From assembly GCF_963921235.1 (NCBI RefSeq), contig NC_086108.1:50594001-50658000 (forward strand): a stretch of 64,000 nucleotides of DNA, read 5' to 3'. Made by a program: the position numbers and the translations under genes. The notes beneath the pieces are model-generated. The model was not told the origin of the DNA. It saw only the letters and a list, made by a program, of their open reading frames with translations, and did not search any database. Below are positions 4,401-58,700 of this stretch, piece by piece. The DNA is from Mobula hypostoma. Its lineage: Eukaryota. Position 1 is the first letter of the stretch. Each line of letters starts with the position of its first letter.

Positions 4401-4986
4401 CTCACTTTGCAACCTCTAGATGTACACCCTTCCACTTGAGAATACTGAAGACTTGATCTGAGATGTTCCATATCCTGGCACCCGGGAGGCAACTTACCAT
4501 CCAGGAATTTCATTGTCATCCACAAACCTCCTTTCTGTTCCCTAACTAATGAATCCCCTATCAACACGGCTTACCTCTTCTTTCCCCTTCCCTTCCCTTC
4601 TGAGTCACAGAGCCAGACTCAGTGCCAGAAATCTGACCACAGTGACTTTCCTCTGCTAGGTCATTCCCCCCACCCCCCAGCAGTATCCAAGTCGTCTACC
4701 TGTTGTTGAGTGGATGGCCATAGGGGTGCTCTGCACTAACTGTTTAACCCCTTTCCCATTCCTGACTGTCACCTAATTTCTTGTGTCCTGCACCTTGGGT
4801 GTAACTACCTCTCTCTATTTGTCCTATCTATCACCCCCTCTGGCTCCCGCGTGACCCAGAGTTCATCCAGTTCCCGCTCCAACTCCTTAACACGGAGTGT
4901 TTGAAGCTGTATCTGGATGTACTTTTCGCAGGTGTAGTTGTCAGGGACACTGGAGGTCTCCCTGCCTTCACGCATTGCGCAAGAGG
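1410..4986 (-). mobile_element. Old degenerate CR1 LINE (ORF2 RT and endonuclease fragments, ORF1 zinc-finger and esterase remnants), host to nested insertions; its 5' end continues beyond 7158
   Basis: ORF fragments LEYCIQFWSP, SGVPQGS..LFVIYINDL, SQHGF, IGDSLVR (SGNH esterase) and CSSC...VKELERELDEL (ORF1 zinc finger/leucine zipper). Confidence 0.88.
3083..3736. mobile_element. Degenerate solo LTR inserted in the CR1
   Basis: Interrupts the CR1 between GCAAAAAAATTC and ATCCATTTAAG. Termini TGAAAC...GTTAGA look like a decayed TGTAAC...GTTACA. 4-bp TSD ATTC/ATCC. Confidence 0.6.
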
Positions 4987-7158
4987 AACATAGAAACATA
5001 GAAAATAGGTGCAGGAGTAGGCCATTCGGCCCTTCGAGCCTGCACTGCCATTTATTATGATCATGGCTGATCATCCAACTCAGAACCCCGCCCCAGCCTT
5101 CCCTCCATACCCCCTGATCCCCGTAGCCACAAGGGCCATATCTAACTCCCTCTTAAATATAGCCAATGAACTGGCCTCAACTGTTTCCTGTGGCAGAGAA
5201 TTCCACAGATTCACCACTCTCTGTGTGAAGAAGTTTTTCCTAATCTCGGTCCTAAAAGGCTTCCCCTTTATCCTCAAACTGTGACCCCTTGTTCTGGACT
5301 TCCCCAACATCAGGAGCAATCTTCCTGCATCTAGCCTGTCCAATCCCTTTAGGATTTTATACGTTTCAATAAGATCCCCCCTCAATCTTCTAAATTCCAA
5401 CGAGTACAAGCCCAGTTCATCCAGTCTTTCTTCATATGAAAGTCCTGCCATCCCAGGAATCAATCTGGTGAACCTTCTTTGTACTCCCTCTATGGCAAGG
5501 ATGTCTTTCCTCAGATTAGGGGACCAAAACTGCACACAATACTCCAGGTGTGGTCTCACCAAGGCCTTGTACAACTGCAGTAGTACCTCCCTGCTCCTGT
5601 AGTCGAATCCTCTCGCTATAAATGCCAGCATACCATTCGCCTTTTTCACCACCTGCTGTACCTGCATGCCCACTTTCAATGACTGGTGTATAATGACACC
5701 CAGGTCTCGTTGCACCTCCCCTTTTCCTAATCGGCCACCATTCAGATAATAATCTGTTTTCCTATTTTTGCCACCAAAGTGGATAACTTCACATTTATCC
5801 ACATTAAATTGCATCTGCCATGAATTTGCCCACTCACCCAACCTATCCAAGTCACTCTGCATCCTCTTAGCATCCTCCTCACTGCTAACACTGCCACCCA
5901 GCTTCGTGTCATCCGCAAACTTGGAGATGCTGCATTTAATTCCCTCATCCAAGTCATTAATATATATTGTAAACAACTGGGGTCCCAGCACTGAGCCTTG
6001 CGGTACCCCACTAGTCACCGCCTGCCATTCTGAAAAGGTCCCGTTATTTCCCACTCTTTGCTTCCTGTCTGCTAACCAATTCTCCATCCACATCAATACC
6101 TTACCCCCAATACCGTGTGCTTTAAGTTTGCACACTAATCTCCTGTGTGGGACCTTGTCAAAAGCCTTTTGAAAATCCAAATATACCACATCCACTGGTT
6201 CTCCCCTATCCACTCTACTAGTTACATCCTCAAAAAATTCTATGAGATTCGTCAGACATGATTTTCCTTTCACAAATCCATGCTGACTTTGTCCGATCAT
6301 TTCACCGCTTTCCAAATGTGCTGTTGTCACATCTTTGATAACTGACTCCAGCAGTTTCCCCACCACCAACGTTAGGCTAACTGGTCTATAATTCCCTGTT
6401 TCTCTCTCCCTCCTTTTTTAAAAAGTGGGGTTACATTAGCCACCCTCCAATCCTCAGGAACTAGTCCAGAATCTAACGAGTTTTGAAAAATTATCACTAA
6501 TGCATCCACTATTTCTTGGGCTACTTCCTTAAGCACTCTAGGATGCAGACCATCTGGCCCTGGGGATTTATCTGCCGTCAATCCCTTCAATTTACCTAAC
6601 ACCACTTCCCTACTAACATGTATTTCGCTCAGTTCCTCCATCTCACTGGACCCTCTGTCCCCTACTATTTCTGGAAGATTATTTATGTCCTCCTTAGTGA
6701 AGACAGAACCAAAGTAATTATTCAATTGGTCTGCCATGTCCTTGCTCTCCATAATCAATTCACCTGTTTCTGTCTGTAGGGGACCTACATTTGCCTTTAC
6801 CAGTCTTTTCCTTTTTACATATCTATAAAAGCTTTTACAGTCAGTTTTTATGTTCCCTGCCAGTTTTCTCTCATAATCCTTTTTCCCCTTCCTAATTAAG
6901 CCCTTTGTCCTCCTCTGCTGAACTCTGAATTTCTCCTAGTCCTCAGGTGAGCCACTTTCTCTGGCTAATTTGTATGCTTCTTCTTTGGAATTGATACTAT
7001 CCCTAATTTCTCTTGTCAGCCACGGCTGCACTACCTTCCTTGATTTATTCTTTTGCCCAACTGGGATGAACAATTGTTGTAGTTCATCCATGCAACCTTT
7101 AAATGCTTGCCATTGCATATCCACCGTCAATCCTTTAAGTGTCATTTGCCAGTCTATC
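4987..7158 (-). mobile_element. Young 5'-truncated CR1 LINE, copy A
   Basis: RT ORF 5080-6369 (QGSVLGP, FADD), (TTTCTATG)n tail, a 1-nt frameshift near 6397 and a TGG>TAG stop at 6936. Nearly identical to copies B and C. Confidence 0.96.
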
Positions 7159-14949: not shown

Positions 14950-17255
14950 GAAGCTGTTGCTTATGGAGTTTAGCGTCAGGTTTAAAAAGCGAGTGGGGCC
15001 TGTTGGGACTTACAGTGGAGCCTCAGATCATTTGAATTATTAGGCACTTGGCAAGGGCCAAGAAAATAAGTGAGGCTTAAGCTGAGCGGCCATCGTTGGA
15101 GTGGGACAGCGTTAGAGTGGAGAACTAAGGCTTTGGCTCAGAAGGCTTCAGTGAGAGGTGGAAGCTGGGTTGACGCTTCTGTGAAGTTTCTGTTTTTCTT
15201 TATCAGTGCCTATATAGAGTATTGAGAATACATCCCAGGTCAGTGGTGTGCAAGATGTGGGAGATCTGGAAGACCTCCAGTCTTTCTGATAACTGATTAA
15301 AAGGTGCATCTGAACAAGATTCCTGGATGGTATATTGCCTCCCAGGTGCTAGTGTCAGGGACATCTTGGATCAAGTCCATAGCATTCTTAAGGGGGAAGG
15401 ACAGCAGCGAGGATGTGGTCCACGTCAGTACCAATGACATAGGCCAGAAAGGTGACAAGGTCCCCAAAGTGATTTCAGCGAGTTAGGTGCTAAATTAAAG
15501 GACATGATTTTCTGGGTGGTGATCTCAGGATTGCTACCCATGCCAGTGAGGCTAGATTGCTACCTGTACTAGAGAGGCTAGAAATAGGAAGGTAATACAA
15601 TTTAATACGTGGGTAAGGAGATTGTGCAGAAGGGAGGGATTCAGATTTTTGGATCATTGGGCTTTCTTCCATGGAAGGTGGGACCTGTACAAACAGGACA
15701 GTTTACACCTGAGTGGAGGGGAATTAGGCAGGGCAGGTTACAGAGTGTGAGTAGGGGAACATTCTGGATTTAGATTAGATTAGATTATGAGAACACTCAA
15801 TCCTCTTTTTATTGTCATTTAGAAATGCATACATGCATTAAGAAATTATACAATGTTTTTCCGGAGTGATATCACAGAAAACAGGACAAACCAAAGACTA
15901 ACACTGACGGAACCACATAATTATAACATATAGTTACAGCAGTGCAAAGCAATACCATAATTTGATGATGAACAAACCATGGGCATGGTAAATAAAGTCG
16001 CAAAGTACCCAAGTCGATCGACTCTCAAGTCCCCGATAGCAGGCAGCAAAAGGGAGAAACTCCCTGCCATAAACCAGGCACCGTCAACTTGCCGATGCCG
16101 TGGAAGCAGCCAACCACAGCCGACACTGAGTCCATCGTCCGAAAACTTCGAGCTTCCGACCAGCCTCTCCGACACAGCCTCCCGAGCGCCATCTTCTGTC
16201 GAGCACCTTCGACCTCTCCCCGGCTGCTGAAACATGCAAAGCCGAGGATTTCAGAACCTTCAGCTTTGGAGATTCCAGTTACCTCACAGTAGCAGCGGCA
16301 GCGAAGCGGGCATTTCAGAAGTTTTCCAGATGTTCCTCCGTACTCTCATGTCTTGTCTCCATCAAATCAGAATTGTGCACGGTCCCCTACTTGACAGATA
16401 ACAGACATCATCACCGAAGTGGCCGCCCGCGCTGCCGTCACGCCTAAATTCTGGATTTAGTGATGATAATCCCATTAGTTTCAAGATAATAATGGAGAAG
16501 GATAGGTCTGGTCCTTGGGCTGAGATTCTAAATTGGAGAAAGGCCAATTTTGATAGCATCAGAATGGGTCTGTTAAGTGTGGATTGAGATGAGTTGTTTT
16601 CTGGCAAAGGGATGCTTGGTAAGTGGGAGGCCTTCAAAGGTGAAATATTGAGAGTACAGAGTTTGTATGTTCCTGTTAGAATAAAAGGCAGGACTAAAAG
16701 GTTCAGGGAGCCTTGGTTTTCAAGAGTTATTGAGGCTGTGGTTAAGAAGAAGTAGGAGATGCTTTGCTGGTCCAGACAGCGAGAAACAATGGAGGAGCGT
16801 AAGAAATGCAAAAAAGCGCTTGAGGAAAATTAGGAATGCTAAGACAAGGCTCTAGGTTGCTCTGGCAGACAAAGTTAAGGAGGATCTCAAGTGCTTCAAC
16901 AGATAAATTAAGCATGAAAGTATAGCAAGAGACAAAATTAGTTTTCTTGAAGATCTGAGTATGGAGCCAAAAAGACAGGGGAAATCTTAAATGGATTTTT
17001 CACATCAGTATTTACTCAGGAAATGGATACAGAGTCTATAGAACTGAGGCAAAACAGTAGTGAGGCAGCCATGGACAGTATCCAGGTTACAGAAGGGGGG
17101 TGCTTTCTTGATGAATCTCCAGGGCCTGACAAGATACCCTGTCAAACTCTGTGGGAAGCTAGTGCAGAAATTGCGGAGGTATTTTCAACATCCTTAGCCA
17201 CAGGTGAGGTGCTAGAGATCTGAAGGGTAGCTAACGTTGTTCTGTTGTTCAAGAA
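14950..17255 (+). mobile_element. Degenerate CR1 LINE (ORF1 esterase, endonuclease and linker remnants)
   Basis: VVHVSTNDIG esterase motif, VGEH..SD.N endonuclease remnant, SPGPD motif. Confidence 0.8.
15774..16447 (-). mobile_element. Non-coding retroposon with (AATCT)n tail, copy 1
   Basis: TTAGA-repeat tail, 13-bp TSD ATTCTGGATTTAG (15761-15773 and 16448-16460), homologous to 19005-19659. Confidence 0.85.
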
Positions 17256-26850: not shown

Positions 26851-27731
26851 TGTCATGGTCCGGTCCGTGAAGTCTGCATTCCGGTTCACAGACCAGTCCA
26901 TCGATCCTTACTCCAGGTTTTCTGGTTTTCCTTTGTTCTGTTGGGTGCTCTAATTGAGGCATATGATTCTCGTTTGGGCAGACACATAAATACCTCCGGA
27001 GACCAGGGCTTTGCTGCTGGATTGTTCCTGTCTGAATCCCTTCTCTGCCTCTTCCTCCTGAAGCCTTGCCTCTGTCGTTTTGAACTGTCTCTGTGTCCAC
27101 GGCTTCGCTAGGTAGGTCCAGCCGTTTGCCGCTACTTTGTGTTGGGAGCTGTCTCTCTGTGTTCTGTATATGAGCCCTGACCCTACGTCCTGTTCCCAAG
27201 GAGGGGTCCCGGCTCTGTGTTCTGCATTCCTGTCGCCCTTGATCGAGGCTCTGCGCTCCCGCCTCCCCCTCGACCGAGGCTCTGCGCTCCCGCCTCCCCC
27301 TCGACCGAGGCTCTGCGCTCCCGCCTCCCCCTCGACCGAGGCTCTGCGCTCCCGCCTCCCCCTCGACCGAGGCTCTGCGCTCCCGCCTCCCCCTCGACCG
27401 AGGCTCTGCGCTCCCGTCTCTCCCTCGACCAAGCAAGGCTTCGTGTTCTCGTCCTGTCCATGTGCCCAGTCCTGTAGCCATGTCTTGTCCTCGCCTAGTT
27501 CCGGGGTCTGAGCCCAAGTCAAGACCCAGGTTCTGGGCCCTTGTCCAGTCTCCAGCTCAGACTCCAAACCCAGGCTTCTAGTTCCCAGTTCCTTGTCTTG
27601 GTTCCGCTTGCCTAGCCAATGTCCTAGCCCAAGTCTGTGTTCTTGTCCCCGCTCTCTAGTCAAGTCCTGTTCCTAGTACTTCAGTGTCTGTGTCTTGCAT
27701 TTGGGTCTGCTCCAAGCGCCCCTGTATGACA
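26851..27731. mobile_element. Solo LTR (Gypsy-like)
   Basis: Perfect TGTCAT...ATGACA termini and 5-bp TSD ACCTC (26846-26850 and 27732-27736). Confidence 0.88.
27239..27430. repeat. 31-bp GC-rich minisatellite, 6 full units plus a partial
   Basis: Unit TCGACCGAGGCTCTGCGCTCCCGCCTCCCCC starting at 27239, 27270, 27301, 27332, 27363 and 27394. Confidence 0.97.
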
Positions 27732-28458
27732 ACCTCTGCTTTAAATATACTCAATGACTTGGTCTCAACAGTTATCCATGGTAATGAATTCCACAAATTC
27801 ACCACCCTCTGGCTAAAGAAATTCCTCCTCCCCACTGTTCTGTGGAACACCACTAGTCACCGACCTCCAGACAGAATACGCTCCATTTCTTACTACTGTT
27901 TGCCTCAGTGGGCAGCCATTTCCCAGTATCCTATGCCTCTGACTTTCTGAATGAGTCTACTATGGGGAACCTTATAGAACACCTTAATAAGATCACTGCT
28001 CGATCTTCATCTGTTTGTTTTGTCACTTCCTTGAAGAATTCAATCAGCCTCTTGGGACGTGACCTGTCCTTAGAAAGCCATGCTGACTATTCCTAATCAG
28101 ACTATGCTTCTCCAAATGCTCATAAATCCCATCTCTAGGAAACTTCGCCAATAGTTGACCCACTGATGTAAGTCCCAGGTTTATTGTTATTACCTTTCTG
28201 AACAAAGGAGTAATATTTGTTACAGTCCAATCATCTGGTACTACTGTGGCTAGCGAGGATGCAAAGATCATTGCCAAAGTGTGACAATCTCTTCCCTCTC
28301 TTTGTCTAGTAACGTGGGGCACGTCCAATCTGAATAATTATACCAAAGTAAGATTTTGACTGAAGATCTCACACAGTTCTTCTTGTCTCCAGTCTGAAGA
28401 ATCAAAGCAATTCAATAAATGAAATGGGCCTTATGTACACTCCTGATGTGAGTGATAT

Positions 28459-31400
28459 GACGTGAGTGGGAGGAACTGGATGAACTGGGCTTGTACTCGT
28501 TGGAATTTAGAAGATTGAGGGGGGATCTGATTGAAACGTATAAAATCCTAAAGGGATTGGACAGGCTAGATGCAGGAACGTGAGTGGGAGGGTGAGGAGC
28601 CAGAGGTTGTGGTACATATAGGTACCAATGACATAGGTAGGAAAAGGGATGAGGTCCTGAAAGGAGAATATAGGGAGCTAGGAAGGGAGTTGAGAAAAAG
28701 GACCGCAAAGGTAGTAATCTCGGGATTACTGCCTGTGCCACGTGACAGTGAGAGTGGGAATGCGATGAGGTGGAGGATAAATGCGTGGCTGAGGGATTGG
28801 AGCAGGGGGCAGGGATTCAAGTTTTTGGATCATTGGGACCTCTTTTGGCGCAGGCGTGACCTGTACAAAAAGGACGGGTTACACTTGAATCCTAGGGGAC
28901 CAATATCCTGGCAGGGAGATTAGCGAGGGCTACTGAGGTGACTTTAAACTAGAATGGTTGGGGGGTGGGAATCAAATTAAAGAGGCTGGGCGTGAGGAGG
29001 TTAGTTTGCAACAGGGGGATGGGAACCAGTGCAGAGAGACAAAGGGGTGTAAAGTGAGGGTAGAAGCAAAAAGTACTAAGGAGAAAAGTAAAAGTGGCAG
29101 GCCGACAAATCCAGGGCAAGCATTAAAAAGGGCCACTTTTCAACATAATTGTATAAGGGCTAAGAGAGTTGTAAAAGAGCGCCTGAAGGCTTTGTGTGTC
29201 AATGTAAGGAGCATTCGTAATAAGGTGGATGAATTGAAAGTGCAGATTGTTATTAATGATTATGATATAGTTGGGATCACAGAGACATGGCTCCAGGGTG
29301 ACCAAGGATGGGAGCTCAACGTTCAGGGATATTCAATACACAGGAGGGATAGACATGAAGGAAGGGGAGGTGGGGTGGCGTTGCTGGTTAAAGAAGAGAT
29401 TAACGCAATAGAAAGGAAGGACATAAGCCAGGAAGATGTGGAATCAATATGGGTAGAGCTGCGTAACGCTAAGGGGCAGAAGACGCTGGTGGGAGTTGTG
29501 TACAGGCCACCTAACAGTAGTAGTGAGGTCGGCGATGGTATTAAACAGGAAATTAGAAATGTGTGCAATAAAGGAACAGCAGTTATAATGGGTGACTTCG
29601 ATCTACATGTAGATTGGGTGAACCAAATTGGTAAAGGTGCTGTGGAAGAGGATTTCTTGGAATGTATGCGGGATAGTTTTTTGAACCAACATGTCGAGGA
29701 ACCAACTAGAGAGCAGGCTATTCTGGACTGGGTTTTGAGCAATGAGGAAGGGTTAATTAGCAATCTTGTCGTGAGAGGCCCCTTGGGTAAGAGTGACCAT
29801 AATATGGTGGAATTCTTCATTAAGATGGAGAGTGACATAGTTAATTCAGAAACTTAAAGAGGGGTAACTTTGAAGGTATGAGACGTGAATTAGCTAAGAT
29901 AGACTGGCAAATGGCACTTAAAGGATTGACGGTGGATATGCAATGGCAAGCATTTAAAGGTTGCATGGATGAACTACAACAATTGTTCATCCCAGTCTGG
30001 CAAAAGAATAAATCAAGGAAGGTAGTGCAGCCGTGGCTGACAAGAGAAATTAGGGATAGTATCAATTCCAAAGAAGAAGCATACAAATTAGCCAGAGAAA
30101 GTGGCTCACCTGAGGACTGGGAGAAATTCAGAGTTCAGCAGAAGAGGACAAAGGGCTTAATTAGGAAAGGGAAAAAAGATTATGAGAGAAAACTGGCAGG
30201 GAACATAAAAACTGACTGTAAAAGCTTTTATAGATATGTAAAAAGGAAAAGACTGGTAAAGACAAATGTAGGTCCCCTGCAGACAGAAACAGGTGAATTG
30301 ATTATGGGGAGCAAGGACATGGCAGACCAAGTGAATAATTACTTTGGTTCTGTCTTCACTAAGGAGGACATAAATAATCTTCCAGAAATAGTAGGGGACA
30401 GAGGGTCCAGTGAGATGGAGGAACTGAGCGAAATACATGTTAGTAGGGAAGTGGTGTTAGGTAAATTGAAGGGATTGAATGCAGATAAATCCCCAGGGCC
30501 AGATGGTCTGCATCCTAGAGTGCTTAAGGAAGTAGCCCAAGAAATAGTGGATGCATTAGTGATAATTTTTCAAAACTCGTTAGATTCTGGACTAGTTCCT
30601 GAGGATTGGAGGGTGGCTAATGTAACCCCACTTTTTAAAAAAGGAGGGAGAGAGAAACCAGGGAATTATAGACCGGTTAGCCTAATGTCGGTGGTGGGGA
30701 AACTGCTGGAGTCAGTTATCAAAGATGTGATAACAGCACATTTGGAAAGCGGTGAAATGAGCGGACAAACTCAGCATGGATTTGTGAAAGGAAAATCATG
30801 TCTGACGAATCTCATAGAATTTTTTGAGGATGTAACTAGTAGAGTGGATAGGGGAGAACCAGTGGATGTGGTATATTTGGATTTTCAAAAGGCTTTTGAC
30901 AAGGTCCCACACAGGAGATTAGTGTGCAAACTTAAAGCACACGTTATTGGGGGTAAGGTATTGATGTGGATGGAGAATTGGTTAGCAGACAGGAAGCAGT
31001 GGGAATAAACGGGACCTTTTCAGAATGGCAGGTGGTGACTGGTGGGGTACCGCAAGGCTCAGTGCTGGGACCCCAGTTGTTTACAATATATATTAATGAC
31101 TTGGATGAGGGAATTAAATGCAGCATCTCCAAGTTTGCGGATGACACGAAGCTGGGTGGCAGTGTTAGCAGTGAGGAGGATGCTAAGAGGATGCAGAGTG
31201 ACTTGGATAGGTTGGGTGAGTGGGCAAGTTCATGGCAGATGCAATTTAATGTGGATAAATGTGAAGTTATCCACTTTGGTGGCAAAAATAGGAAAACAGA
31301 TTATTATCTGAATGGTGGCCGATTAGGAAAAGGGGAGGTGCAACAAGACCTGGGTGTCATTATACACCAGTCATTGAAAGTGGGCATGCAGGTACAGCAG

Positions 31401-32246
31401 GCGGTGAAAAAGGCGAATGGTATGCTGGCATTTATAGCAAGAGGATTCGAGTACAGGAGCAGGGAGGTACTACTGCAGTTGTACAAGGCCTTGGTGAGAC
31501 CACACCTGGAGTATTGTGTGCAGTTTTGGTCCCCTAATCTGAGGAAAGTCATCCTTGCCATAGAGGGAGTACAAAGAAGGTTCACCAGATTGATTCCTGG
31601 GATGGCAGGACTTTCATATGAAGAAAGACTGGATGAACTGGGCTTGTACTTGTTGGAATTTAGAAGATTGAGGGGGGATCTGATTGAAACGTATCTGATT
31701 GACGTGAGTGGGAGGGTGAGGAGCCAGATGTCGTGGTACATATAGGTACCAATGACATAGGTAGGAAAAGGGATGAGGTCCTGAAAGGAGAATATAGGGA
31801 GCTAGGAAGGGAGTTGAGAAAAAGGACCACAAAGGTAGTAATCTCAGGAGTACTGCCTGTGCCACGCGACAGTTAGAGTAGGATTGGACAGGCTAGATGC
31901 AGGAAGATTGTTCCCGATGTTGGGGAAGTCCAGAACAAGGGGTCACAGTTTGAGGATAAAGGGGAAGCCTTTTAGGACCGAGATTAGGAAAAACTTCTTC
32001 ACACAGAGAGTGGTGAATCTGTGGAATTCTCTGCCACAGGAAACAGTTGAGGCCAGTTCATTGGCTATATTTAAGAGGGAGTTAGATATGGCCCTTGTGG
32101 CTACGGGGATCAGGGGGTATGGAGGGAAGGCTGGGGCGGGTTTCTGAGTTGGATGATCAGCCATGATCATAATAAATGGCGGTGCAGGCTCGAAGGGCCA
32201 AATGGCCTACTCCTGCACCTATTTTCTATGTTTCTATGTTTCTATG
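28459..32246 (+). mobile_element. Young CR1 LINE copy B (ORF1 esterase end, APE endonuclease, RT), disabled and rearranged
   Basis: VVHIGTNDI and DGLHLN (SGNH esterase); GITETW, YRPP, GDF and SDH (APE); FADD (RT); (TTTCTATG)3 tail. Frameshifts near 29853 and 30997, plus an internal insertion at 31695-31880. Confidence 0.96.
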
Positions 32247-32339
32247 AGTGTCCCATGCCGAAAGGAGATGGGGAGGGGGTGGATGGAAGACCCTCATCAC
32301 TCTCAGCTTGTAATGTTTGTCCAAGTATAGAAGATTGGA

Positions 32340-33517
32340 AGCAAGAGGAAATCCAGCAGATGCTGGAAATCCAAGCAACACACACAAAATACTGGAGGAA
32401 CTCAGCAGGCCAGGCAGCATCTATGGAAGAGTACAGTCGACATTTCAGGCCGAGACCCCTCAGTAGGACTGGAGAAAAAAAGCCGAGGAGTAGATTTAAG
32501 GGGAGGGGGGAGGGGAGAGAGAAACACAAGGTGATAGGTGAAACTTGAAGGGGGAGGGGTGAAGTAAAGAGCTGGGAAGTTGATTAGTGAGAGATACAGG
32601 ATTGGAGAGGGGAGAATCTGATAGAAGAGGACAGAAGGCCATGGAAGAAAGAAAAGGGGGGAGGAGCACCAGAGGGAAGCGATATGATAATGTGAGGGAG
32701 GGAAGGGGGGATGGGAAATGGTGAAGGGGGGGCATTACCAGAAGTTCAAGAATTGATGTTCATGCCATCAGGTTGGAGGCTACCCAAACAGAATATAAGG
32801 TGTTGTTCCTCCAACCTGAGTGTGGCCTCATCATGACAGTGGAGGAGGCCATGGATAGACATATGGGAATGGGAAGTGGAAGTAAAATGGGTCGTCACTG
32901 GGAGATCCCGCTTTTTCTGGTGGACAGTGTGGGTGCTCGGTGAAGCGATCTTCCAATCTACGTCAAGTCTTGCCACACTGGGAGCACTGGACACGGTATA
33001 TGTCCCCAACAGTATATATTGCTTCACCTGGAAGGACTTCAGGGCACTGAATGGCAGTGAGGGAGGAGGTGTAGGGGCAGGTGTAGCACTTGTTCCACTT
33101 GCAAGGATAAACACCAGGAGGGAGATCAGTGGGGAGGGACGAATGGACAGGGAGCGATCCCTGTGGAAAGCAGAAAGTGGAGGGGAGGGAAAGATGTGCT
33201 TAGCGGTGGAATCCCATTGAATATGACAGAAGTTGCCGGAATTATGTGGTGGACGTGGAGGCTGGTGGGGTGGTAGGTGAGGATAATCCTTGGTAGGGTG
33301 GCAGGAGGATAGAGTGAGATTAGATGTGCGTGAAATGGAACAGATGTATTTGAGGGCAGCGTAGATGGTGGAGGAAGGGAAGCCCTTTTCTTTGAAGCAG
33401 GAGGACATCTTCATTCTGGAATGAAAAGCCTCATCCTGAGAGCAGATGCGGAGGAGTCGGAGGAATTGAGAGAAGTTGATGGCGTTTTTACAAATAACGT
33501 GGGAAGGGGTGTAGTCC
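32340..33517 (-). mobile_element. Penelope-like element 3' portion (RT C-terminus/linker, GIY-YIG region, terminal repeat)
   Basis: FKEKGFPSSTI, IFPSPPLSAF.RDRSL, LPV..HF.S.SHSH, LEEQHLIFCLGSLQPDGMNI; decayed hammerhead at about 32434-32472. Confidence 0.85.
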
Positions 33518-33969
33518 GGATCGGAACCAGAAAAGTGAAATACTGTACATTGAAATGTCCAACAAGCTGGTCCGTTTCTGTGGATAAATAGAAGTCGCGG
33601 AAGGGCACTAAACTAATAATAATAAAAACTGCATATCTGTTCAGCAGCTCATAACTGTGAGTTTCCAGCGCAGGACAAAATTTACAGGGTCTCCACCTTT
33701 TAGTAAGGGAAACAACGGGGTGAAGTAAAGTACCTTGTTTCGGCGACAGCTGAAGTGCTCTCTTCACGTTAGGATGGGCTGTACATGTACAGTATCTGCA
33801 TGGACACTTCTAAAGGCGATATTGTTTTCCACAAAATGCATGCGGTTGGAAGGGAATTGTTTTAATGGAATAAATGAGGAAATTATGATCACTGCCACAA
33901 TTGACTAACAAATGAGAGATTTATGGTAACTTTAGAAGTGGTGACGGCAACTTACTGCACACCAGTACA

Positions 33970-43090: not shown

Positions 43091-45290
43091 TAGAAACGTA
43101 GAAAATAGGTGCAGGAGTAGGCCATTCGGCCCTTCGAGCCTGCACCGCCATTTATTATGATCATGGCTGATCATCCAACTCAGAACCCCGCCCCAGCCTT
43201 CCCTCCATACCCCCTGACCCCTGTAGCCACAAGGGCCATATCTAACTCCCTCTTAAACATAGCCAATGAACTGGCCTCAACAGTTTCCTGTGGCAGAGAA
43301 TTCCACAGATTCACCACTCTCTGTGTGAAGAAGTTTTTCCTAATCTCGGTCCTAAAAGGCTTCCCGTCTATCCTCAAACTGTGACCCCTCGTTCTGGACT
43401 TCCCCAACATCGGGAACAATCTTCCTGCATCCAGCCTGCCCAATCCCTTTAGGATCTTATACGTTTCAATCAGATCCCCCCTCAATCTTCTAAATTCCAA
43501 CGAGTACAAGCCCAGTTCATCCAGTCTTTCTTCATATGAAAGTCCTGCCATCCCAGGAATCAATCTGGTGAACCTTCTTTGTACTCCCTCTATGGCAAAG
43601 ATGTCTTTCCTCAGATTAGGGGACCAAAACTGCACACAATACTCCAGCTGTGGTCTCACCAAGGCCTTGTACAACTGCAGTAGTACCTCCCTGCTCCTGT
43701 ACTCGAATCCTCTCGCTATAAATGCCAGCATACCATTTGCCTTTTTCACCGCCTGCTGTACCTGCATGCCCACTTTCAATGACTGGTGTATAATGACACC
43801 CAGGTCTCGTTGCACCTCCCCTTTTCCTAATCGGCCACCATTCAGATAATAATCTGTTTTCCTATTTTTGCCACCAAAGTGGATAACTTCTCATTTATCC
43901 ACATTAAATTGCATCTGCCATGAGTTTGCCCACTCACCCAACCTATCCAAGTCACCCTGCATCCTCTTAGCATCCTCCTCACTGCTAACACTGCCACCCA
44001 GCTTCGTGTCATCCGCAAACTTGGAGATGCTGCATTTAATTCCCTCATCCAAGTCATTAATATATATTGTAAACAACTGGGGTCCCAGCACTGAGCCTTG
44101 CGGTACCCCACTAGTCACCGCCTGCCATTCTGAAAAGGTCCCGTTTATTCCCACTCTTTGCTTCCTGTCTGCTAACCAATTCTCCACCCACACCAATACC
44201 TTACCCCCAATACCGTGTGCTTTAAGTTTGCACACTAATCTCCTGTGTGGGACCTTGTCAAAAGCCTTTTGAAAATCCAAATATACCACATCCACTGGTT
44301 CTCCCCTATCCACTCTACTAGTTACATCCTCAAAAAATTCTATGAGATTCGTCAGACATGATTTTCCTTTCACAAATCCATGCTGACTTTGTCTGATCAT
44401 TTCACCGCTTTCCAAATGTGCTGTTATCACATCCTTGATAACTGACTCCAGCAGTTTCCCCACCACCGACGTTAGGCTAACCGGTCTATAATTCCCTGGT
44501 TTCTCTCTCCCTCCTTTTTTAAAAAGTGGGGTTACATTAGCCACCCTCCAATCCTCAGGAACTAGTCCAGAATCTAACGAGTTTTGAAAAATTATCACTA
44601 ATGCATCCACTATTTCTTGGGCTACTTCCTTAAGCACTCTAGGAGGCAGACCATCTGGCCCTGGGGATTTATCTGCCTTCAATCCCTTCAATTTACCTAA
44701 CACCACTTCCCTACTAACATGTATTTCACTCAGTTCCTCCATCTCACTGGACCCTCTGTCCCTTACTATTTCTGGAAGATTATTTATGTCCTCCTTAGTG
44801 AAGACAGAACCAAAGTAATTATTCAATTGGTCTGCCATGTCCTTGCTCCCCATAATCAATTCACCTGTTTCTGTCTGCAGGGGACCTACATTTGTCTTTA
44901 CCAGTCTTTTCCTTTTTACATATCTATAAAAGCTTTTACAGTCCGTTTTTATGTTCCCCGCCAGTTTTCTCTCATAATCTTTTTTCCCCTTCCTAATTAA
45001 GCCCTTTGTCCTCCTCTGCTGAACTCTGAATTTCTCCCAGTCCTCAGGTGAGCCACTTTCTCTGGCTAATTTGTATGCTACTTCTTTGGAATTGATACTA
45101 TCCCTAATTTCTCTTGTCAGCCACGGGTGCACTACCTTCCTTGATTTATTCTTTTGCCAAACTGGGATGAACAATTGTTGTAGTTCATCCATGCAACCTT
45201 TAAATGCTTGCCATTGCATATCCACCATCAATCCTTTAAGTGTCATTTGCCAGTCTATCTAGCTAATTCACGTCTCATACCTTCAAAGTT
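43091..45290 (-). mobile_element. Young 5'-truncated CR1 LINE, copy C
   Basis: ORFs 43891-45246 and 43180-43815 are split by a single TGT>TGA stop; near-identical to copies A and B. Confidence 0.96.
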
Positions 45291-57847: not shown

Positions 57848-58700
57848 ATGTGGCCTTCTATATATTGGCGACACCCGACATGTGGCCTTCTATATATTGG
57901 TGAGACCTGACGCAGACTGGGAGACCGCTTTGCTGAACATCTATGCTCTGTCCGCCAGAGAAAGCAGGATCTCCCAGTGGCCACACATTTTAATTCCACA
58001 TCCCATTCCCATTCTGACATGTCTATCCATGGCCTCCTCTACTGTAAAGATGAAGCCACACTCAGGTTGGAGGAACAGCACCTTATATTCCGTCTGGGTA
58101 GCCTCCAACCTGATGGCATGAACATCGACTTCTCTAACTTCCGCTGAAGCCCCACCTCCCCCTCGTACCCCATCTGTTATTTATTTTTATACACACATTC
58201 TTTCTCTCACTCTCCTTTTTCTCCCTCTGACCCTCTGACTATACCCCTTGCCCATCCTCTGGGTTCCCCCGCCCCCCCGTCTTTCTCCCCAGACCTCCTG
58301 TCCCATGATCCTCTCATATCCCCTTTGCCTATCACCTGTCCAGCTCTTGGCTCTATCCCTCCCCCTCCTGTCTTCTCCTATCATTTTGGATCTCCCCCTC
58401 CCCCTCCCACTTTCAAATCTCTTACTCACTCTTCCTTCAGTTAGTCCTGACGAAGGGTCTCGGCCTGAAACATCGACTGTACCTCTTCCTAGAGATGCTG
58501 CCTGGCCTGCTGCGTTCACCAGCAACTTTGATGTGTGTTGCTTGAATTTCCAGCATCTGCAGAATTCCTGTTGTTTGCATTTTTTAAAACTCTGATGAAG
58601 ACCTGACGAAGAGTCTCGGCCCAAAATGTTGACTGTTTACTCTTTTCCATGGATGATGCCTGGCCTGCTGAGTTCCTCCAGCATTTTGTGTGTGTTGCTT
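57848..58700 (+). mobile_element. Penelope-like 3' fragment plus a second terminal repeat, inserted in an old CR1 piece (about 57770-58830)
   Basis: CGLLYIGET*RRLGDRFAEH (YIG motif of GIY-YIG) and LEEQHLIFRLGSLQPDGMN. 21-nt duplication at the 5' junction (57848-57868 and 57880-57900). Confidence 0.88.
58442..58479 (+). ncRNA. Minimal hammerhead ribozyme motif (Penelope-associated)
   Basis: TAGTC CTGACGA AGGGTCTCGGCCT GAAA CATC GACTG, downstream of the GIY-YIG ORF end. Confidence 0.62.

Follow-up and report, generated by a model that had tools for sequence, protein, structure and literature searches.

Background

Several described systems leave junctions related to the one reported here. In zebrafish, ZfL2-1 insertions carry duplications of about 5 bp (PMC4245944), and the extra bases found at the 5' junctions of CR1-group LINEs are templated from the flank or from LINE DNA (PMC4245944, PMC4760211). 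For L1, templated insertions shorter than 250 bp have been described, as has twin priming combined with template switching (bioRxiv 10.1101/2024.08.27.596794, PMC11702581), and 81 of 3,598 L1 insertions were left unclassified (bioRxiv 10.1101/2024.08.27.596794). The L1 ORF2p protein can copy DNA, jump between templates and add bases (PMC10830420). The R2 element makes microhomology jumps in vitro and produces target duplications at 5' junctions (PMC13000458), its junction classes include snap-back and extra-template types (PMC11331408), and R1 is associated with rearrangements at the insertion site (PMC2718515). Insertions made by Pol theta are generally under 25 bp (PMC12426944). Internal duplications were left aside as uncharacterised in PMC2912911.

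In this work, we describe a CR1 copy in a 64,000-nucleotide stretch of the genome of the ray Mobula hypostoma (the window). RT sequence stands at the 5' junction of this copy, and ORF1 sequence stands within the same RT segment; this reciprocal structure is confirmed. Flank-templated extra bases, templated insertions and template jumping are all known, whereas the reciprocal same-orientation form with a recopied scar was not found in the literature searched, which comprised few subscription papers.

The ray copy is like the products of the ZfL2-1 and ZfL2-2 annealing pathway in its probable duplication of about 5 bp, its microhomologies of 1-2 nt and its templated extra bases (PMC4245944, PMC4760211). 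Unlike those insertions, in which the extra bases come from beside the junction, it has a template 3 kb away inside the element; it also re-uses the junction twice and has a reciprocal insertion inside the RT. As in the L1 cases, tracts under 250 bp would have been copied during integration, with multi-step switching in one insertion, but the L1 cases involve non-L1 DNA near the site or an inversion, whereas the ray copy has no inversion and its templates are its own ends. Template-end jumps that need hardly any pairing or none, untemplated bases and target sequence duplicated at 5' junctions are features common to the ray copy, L1 ORF2p and R2 (PMC10830420, PMC13000458, PMC11331408, PMC2718515); there, the described events are single 5'-junction jumps or internal deletions rather than a reciprocal pair.

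Results

The element and its sister copies

The CR1 copy is 5'-truncated and spans positions 28461-32246 of the window on the + strand; its parts are listed in Table 1. Canonical CR1 elements have a stem-loop near the 3' end and, after it, a tail of a few short tandem units in place of poly-A. Here, a stem-loop lies in the 3' UTR at 32181-32219 (fold z -3.8; 0 of 200 shuffles as good) ahead of a tandem tail, ORF2 matches the APE endonuclease (PF03372/PF14529) and RT (PF00078) domains, and ORF1 is of the esterase type. The ORF1 fragment is 96% identical to its closest protein (P0001, labelled Mobula hypostoma), and its named nearest relatives are ray and shark proteins. In chondrichthyans, according to one study, canonical CR1 is marked by an esterase ORF1, while L2, Rex1 and Zenon are without ORF1 (PMC13343379). 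From its ORF1 type, its domains and its 3' end, we assign the element to canonical CR1. Frameshifts near 28905, 29850 and 30998 break the copy, which, judged by these, is dead and predicted to be non-functional. ORF2 is further interrupted at 31694, 67 nt into the RT segment that was copied.

Two sister copies, each about 98% identical to the element, lie on the minus strand of the window at 4984-7158 and 43091-45290. In 1792 aligned columns, 17 substitutions are private to the element, while the two sisters have 15 and 18 of their own, or about 0.9% each. In both sisters the RT segment is uninterrupted. The junction of the sister at 43091-45290, with an 8-bp duplication and overlaps at both ends, is the ordinary type for this CR1 family. 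The sister at 4984-7158 is nested in an older CR1 within the window.

Table 1. Features of the CR1 copy and its flanks (window coordinates)
Feature	Position	Strand	Remark
Host flank repeat unit TGATGTGAGTG	28444..28454	+	10/11 match to TGA+CGTG+AGTG; one candidate scar template
TATGA, last bases of the 5' host flank; probable left target-site duplication (up to 5 bp)	28456..28460	+	X5 contig end
Scar CGTG, copy 1	28461..28464	+	Non-native to ORF1; likely target-derived
First 9 nt of truncated ORF1 (putative aborted first start)	28465..28473	+	One extra A follows at 28474
RT 3' segment copy, 104 nt	28475..28578	+	Contains the 12 nt absent from the RT after 31694
Scar CGTG, copy 2	28579..28582	+	Element body restarts here
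Esterase-type ORF1, 3' part (SGNH/GDSL)	28583..28952	+	PF13472, E 1.8e-15; frameshift near 28905
ORF2 (APE endonuclease + RT)	28953..31694	+	Frameshift near 29850; 4-nt deletion near 30998
ORF2 site matching the ORF1-to-RT joint	30410..30426	+	15/17 match; possible stepping stone
Local stutter CTGATTGA	31695..31702	+	Repeats 31680-31687, via AT; terminal TGA as at host end
Scar CGTG, copy 3	31703..31706	+	Precedes internal ORF1 copy
Second ORF1 copy, 177 nt	31707..31883	+	Final GGA (31881-31883) common to RT
Remainder of ORF2 and 3' UTR	31881..32222	+	98% and 97% identity to the two sisters
Tail, three 8-nt TTTCTATG units	32223..32246	+	Last TATG overlaps target duplication
TATGA; probable right target-site duplication	32243..32247	+	Same 5-mer; position judged from X5 contig end

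The host flank and the target-site duplication

Contigs from four of 21 listed sequencing runs (X1, X5, X9 and X15) were compared with the window over 28100-28900; those of X9 and X15 are without coverage of the flank beside the junction. An X1 contig of 395 nt (depth 11.6) covers 28108-28502 and is identical to the window throughout. This confirms in X1 the joint of flank, scar, ORF1 and RT, and with it the 5' junction reported by the first-pass annotation, an earlier reading of the window made from the letters alone. Note that X1 may come from the very sample that gave the window, in which case its contig would be a second assembly and not a second individual. The contig holds the junction and unique flank in one piece, at the same depth. 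It continues past 28491, where sharing with other loci would break it, and the joint therefore looks single-copy, a reading that rests on contig branching, from which rare variants can drop out. The 5' junction sits in the flank's single-copy contig, which speaks against an amplified chimeric source.

In X5 (organism B), contig 17 (486 nt) follows the window over 28108-28460, apart from 6 substitutions and a 3-nt gap, and then leaves the window sequence, with 136 unaligned letters. Counted from 32248, these letters reach 32383, which is about one 31-mer into the next repeat (its first recurring 24-mer was sampled at 32360, with none at 32352). By its length, the unaligned part fits an empty site at this locus in organism B. 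The host flank thus runs to 28460 and not only to 28454, where the first-pass annotation had ended it, and the TGAGTG at 28449-54 that it took for the target duplication falls inside this flank. The target-site duplication is probably TATGA, up to 5 bp, overlapping the last tail unit.

The rearranged segments

The RT copy at 28475-28578 is identical to the RT segments of the sisters at 4984-7158 and 43091-45290 in 103/104 and 101/104 positions, respectively, and agrees in position and length with the 104 nt of RT 3' sequence described in the first pass. With its last A it overlaps the junction by 1 nt, and in the read contigs native loose ends occur at both of its edges. The element's own RT is without 12 nt after 31694, and the stutter, CGTG and ORF1 stand there instead. 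The stutter's TGATTGA is similar to the host end TGATATGA, with agreement at 7 of 8 positions, and the RT rejoin falls on the first GGA after the stall point. Both this GGA overlap and the replacement of 12 nt of RT by a stutter and an ORF1 insert had been recognised in the first pass; the insert proves to comprise 177 nt of ORF1.

The rearrangement has two halves, both of them templated insertions with return: one consists of 104 nt with a 13-nt junction duplication and the other of about 190 nt with the 12-nt RT loss. The microhomology overlaps at the joints are 0-3 nt long, and the junction letters are identical for synthesis in either direction. All element segments are on the + strand; with no inverted piece, the structure is not a product of twin priming, in agreement with the first pass.

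The CGTG scar

The 14-mer found at the three starts, ACGTGAGTGGGAGG, has 3 occurrences and no more in the whole window (28460, 28578 and 31702), where 0.03 are expected, and 0 of 100 shuffles gave 3. Family contigs read ...GATATCCTGA before 28583 (66 contigs in X1 and 49 in X5), and at the scar position 8 of 14 related ORF1 proteins have KWEG and 0 of 14 have REWEG. CGTG is therefore a scar foreign to ORF1. Native ORF1 starts at AGTG, and TGA-CGT in the ORF1 frame reads as a stop followed by Arg. Of the ORF1 breakpoint GACGTGAGTG given in the first pass, the shared start holds, but GACGTG is not ORF1, which is native only from AGTG on.

Two sources of the scar come into question, namely, the host flank unit at 28444-28454 and, alternatively, GTG, the three bases after TATGA in the 3' flank, plus one added C. 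Under either source the scar is likely to be target-derived.

Divergence and timing of the duplicated tracts

Between the two ORF1 copies there are 8 differences over 177 positions, 4 of them at CpG sites, exactly as counted previously, and between the RT copies there is 1 over 92, which makes 9 differing sites in the duplicated tracts together. From the sister divergence, 3.3 differences are expected between the ORF1 copies (P=0.02) and 5.0 over both tracts (P=0.07). The excess in ORF1 counts against one template, and two template molecules would explain it. It may also come from a higher CpG density or from error-prone synthesis; there are 5 CpG sites in the 177-nt ORF1 tract versus 24 in 1792 elsewhere, a density that explains part of the excess. 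An apparent excess of transversions in the inserted ORF1 copy (3 versus 0.6, P=0.02, on the assumption that all three arose in that copy) vanishes over all duplicated sequence (3 versus 1.8, P=0.27).

Among the X1 family contigs, 99.8% have A at 28756 and 71% have C at 28743, and by these family alleles the 5' ORF1 copy carries derived bases of its own. The A of the internal ORF1 copy is the minority allele at 28705 (6%) and 28722 (15%). Among the 40 variants listed, none is a private change shared by both copies against nearly all X1 family contigs. With zero shared changes versus nine separate ones, the duplication falls, at a 95% bound, in the first 44% of the time since the copy arose.

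Discussion

A proposed single insertion with second-strand restarts

We think it reasonably probable that the structure arose in one insertion, in which the host-element joint was made first and was followed by three second-strand restarts at the cDNA end, with jumps between ORF1 and RT via 0-3-nt microhomologies. The order of the steps, the strand and the enzyme, which may be the CR1 RT or a host repair polymerase, are what we infer from the observed anatomy and the non-native scar. Target-primed reverse transcription would begin from the tail, with TATG pairing with the target, and the cDNA end, lying in ORF1 at AGTG, would gain CGTG, most or all of it a copy of target sequence. The host end TATGA would then prime the second strand, of which 13 nt would be copied before a jump to the RT; 104 nt of RT would be copied there, followed by a return to the cDNA end through one A. 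A run of 3.1 kb would end in a stall 67 nt into the RT segment, where the strand's own earlier product may still have been paired. Stuttering would go on until a TGA end arose, allowing re-priming at the cDNA end, kept near by the tether of the first detour. Finally, 177 nt would be copied and the RT rejoined at the first GGA ahead, with 12 nt skipped.

The first jump likely tethers the two sites, since the strand would pair with the RT segment and at the same time remain tied to the junction. Such a tether would both obstruct the strand's own second pass and make the junction the nearest template, from which reciprocity would follow with no need for a pre-formed loop. Both returns land on the scar, one via A and the other via TGA, which suggests that the scar was a template end, and the TGA used in the second return is created by the stutter at 31695-31702. 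Because all pieces have the same orientation, one cDNA ending in the scar can template the whole path.

The first-pass annotation had proposed that the cDNA 5' end and the RT region were brought together in a loop or circle and copied from each other by template switching or Pol-theta-type repair. Microhomology-driven switching at a single locus, at or near the time of insertion, agrees with the reading preferred here. The pre-formed loop or circle finds no support, since a search for base-pairing that would hold ORF1 and RT together was negative: predicted ORF1-RT RNA pairing is -35.1 kcal/mol, whereas 261 random pairs average -42.2 (85% of them at least as strong), and DNA pairing is -10.4 against -10.5 for random pairs. 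As for Pol theta, the stutter and the 0-3-nt overlaps look like its work, and the iterative patchwork, the minimal priming at short microhomologies and a stutter that makes the next microhomology are all known from Pol theta and synthesis-dependent MMEJ (PMC12426944). Nevertheless, the 104- and 177-nt tracts are far above the usual length of less than 25 bp (PMC12426944), and together with the 3.1-kb run they need a more processive enzyme, which leaves Pol-theta-type repair a resemblance.

Two further candidates concern the jump and the stall. The site at 30410-30426 in ORF2 did well in first tests, in which 0 of 400 shuffles and 2 of 2805 real 17-mers were as good, but under a fairer, junction-spanning null 7 of 388 random joints scored as high (about 5% after three joints tested), and its use as a stepping stone is suggestive only. 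A hairpin as the cause of the stall was rejected: it has 5 bp over the skipped 12 nt (z -0.87), and 37 of 200 shuffles fold as well.

Alternative explanations

The best-surviving alternative, though an unlikely one, moves the same jumps to the first strand, with the CR1 RT jumping on RNA broken at AGTG. Its path would lead from RT to ORF1, through run-off and target copying, to re-priming in RT and a full-length run, and would be taken twice more before joining. The microhomologies are symmetric and suit this direction equally, non-LTR reverse transcriptases jump templates and add bases (PMC10830420), the internal jumps of R2 in vitro are bounded by microhomology (PMC13000458), and the host unit offers a near match to the end that would have to be copied, TGA+scar+AGTG (10/11). 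Against this, the same scar must arise three separate times. It also requires a C at host position 28447 at the time of insertion; organism B shows no difference from the window at 28447 among the variants listed, a position 14 nt from the aligned end where differences were possibly filtered.

Rather less probable still is later repair, in which a stalled fork or a break within an already complete, normal insertion gave two templated insertions with return, of the FoSTeS/MMBIR type. Each half does resemble an ordinary templated insertion with return, and the timing bound leaves this process the first 44% of the copy's lifetime. Later repair would, however, have to place both events by chance at the exact host-element boundary, which is special only during insertion, and no private mutation common to both copies is among the variants listed.

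We give very little credence to two independent or nested CR1 insertions, or to the copying of an already chimeric source. The excess divergence between the ORF1 copies would fit two insertions, and the family does nest into older CR1s, as the sister at 4984-7158 illustrates; yet there is a single tail and a single target duplication, and the scar is common to all copies and resembles the target at this very locus. The placement of the junction in the single-copy contig of the flank speaks against a chimeric source.

Misassembly of the internal joints is the least credible explanation, for although joint 28578/9 is spanned by none of the contigs listed for 28100-28900, and 31694-31707 and 31881-3 lie outside that stretch, X1 reproduces the 5' junction without a difference, the copies differ at 9 sites with a derived base of its own in the 5' ORF1 copy at 28756, and a stutter ending on the same scar is not something that an assembler would invent.

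Conclusion

To our knowledge, the joining of LINE 5' ends and second-strand synthesis are still poorly understood. We tentatively suggest, as a possibility that we hold to be the less probable side of the question, that this copy is a fossil record of LINE second-strand synthesis, in which a scar was made first, restarts were repeated, and a long jump tethered the sites and led to a reciprocal jump. The value of the finding is mechanistic and hinges on recurrence, this being a single broken copy with no function, and a junction scar repeated inside the element provides the search signature for further cases. Under this reading, the thrice-copied scar would order the steps inside one natural germ-line event, and reciprocal self-templated same-orientation insertions would be an unrecognised class of outcome, one that could be counted in shark and ray genomes, where CR1 copies are abundant.

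CR1 copies related to the main element

Two further copies of the young, 5'-truncated CR1 lie in the window (see table), and their truncation points are about 35 nt apart at most, at element positions 29866 and 29898. The copy at 4984-7158 is inserted in the start of the ORF1 of an older CR1, and its 5' junction carries approximately 9 additional bases, including a small stutter. The copy at 43091-45290 has a clean target duplication, which overlaps the tail at one end and the 5' truncation point at the other.

Repeats and other features of the window
Feature	Positions	Strand	Remarks
Sister CR1 copy	4984-7158	minus	98% identical to main CR1
Decayed esterase ORF1, older CR1 family	15200-15720		~71-76% to ORF1 of young CR1
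Minisatellite, 31-nt unit	27202-27449		~6-8 units, <=97% alike
Potential 5-bp hairpin, AATCC-TAAAG-GGATT	28544-28558
High-copy repeat	32336-33600		several relatives in window: 23874, 24774, 55256, 58000-58700
Sister CR1 copy	43091-45290	minus	8-bp target duplication TAAACTTT

Local features near the joints

The host flank at 28440-28449, CTCCTGATGT, matches the RT just after 31905 at 8 of 10 positions, 5 nt past the end of the 104-nt RT copy, and the likeness is exact in the RT of the sister at 4984-7158. The RT site is not in register with the joints, and the resemblance is probably due to chance. The hairpin, a weak candidate, spans most of the 12 RT bases skipped after 31694, together with the GGA through which the ORF1 copy rejoins the RT.

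Other repeats and a bacterial record

The high-copy repeat, which we take to resemble a Penelope-like or SINE-associated element, includes a 287-aa frame on the minus strand that has no Pfam match. Among the proteins related to the main element's ORF1, one named as a Pseudomonas aeruginosa SGNH hydrolase (P0021) is 63% identical to it and is encoded on a 4.2-kb contig; this bacterial record likely contains shark or ray DNA.
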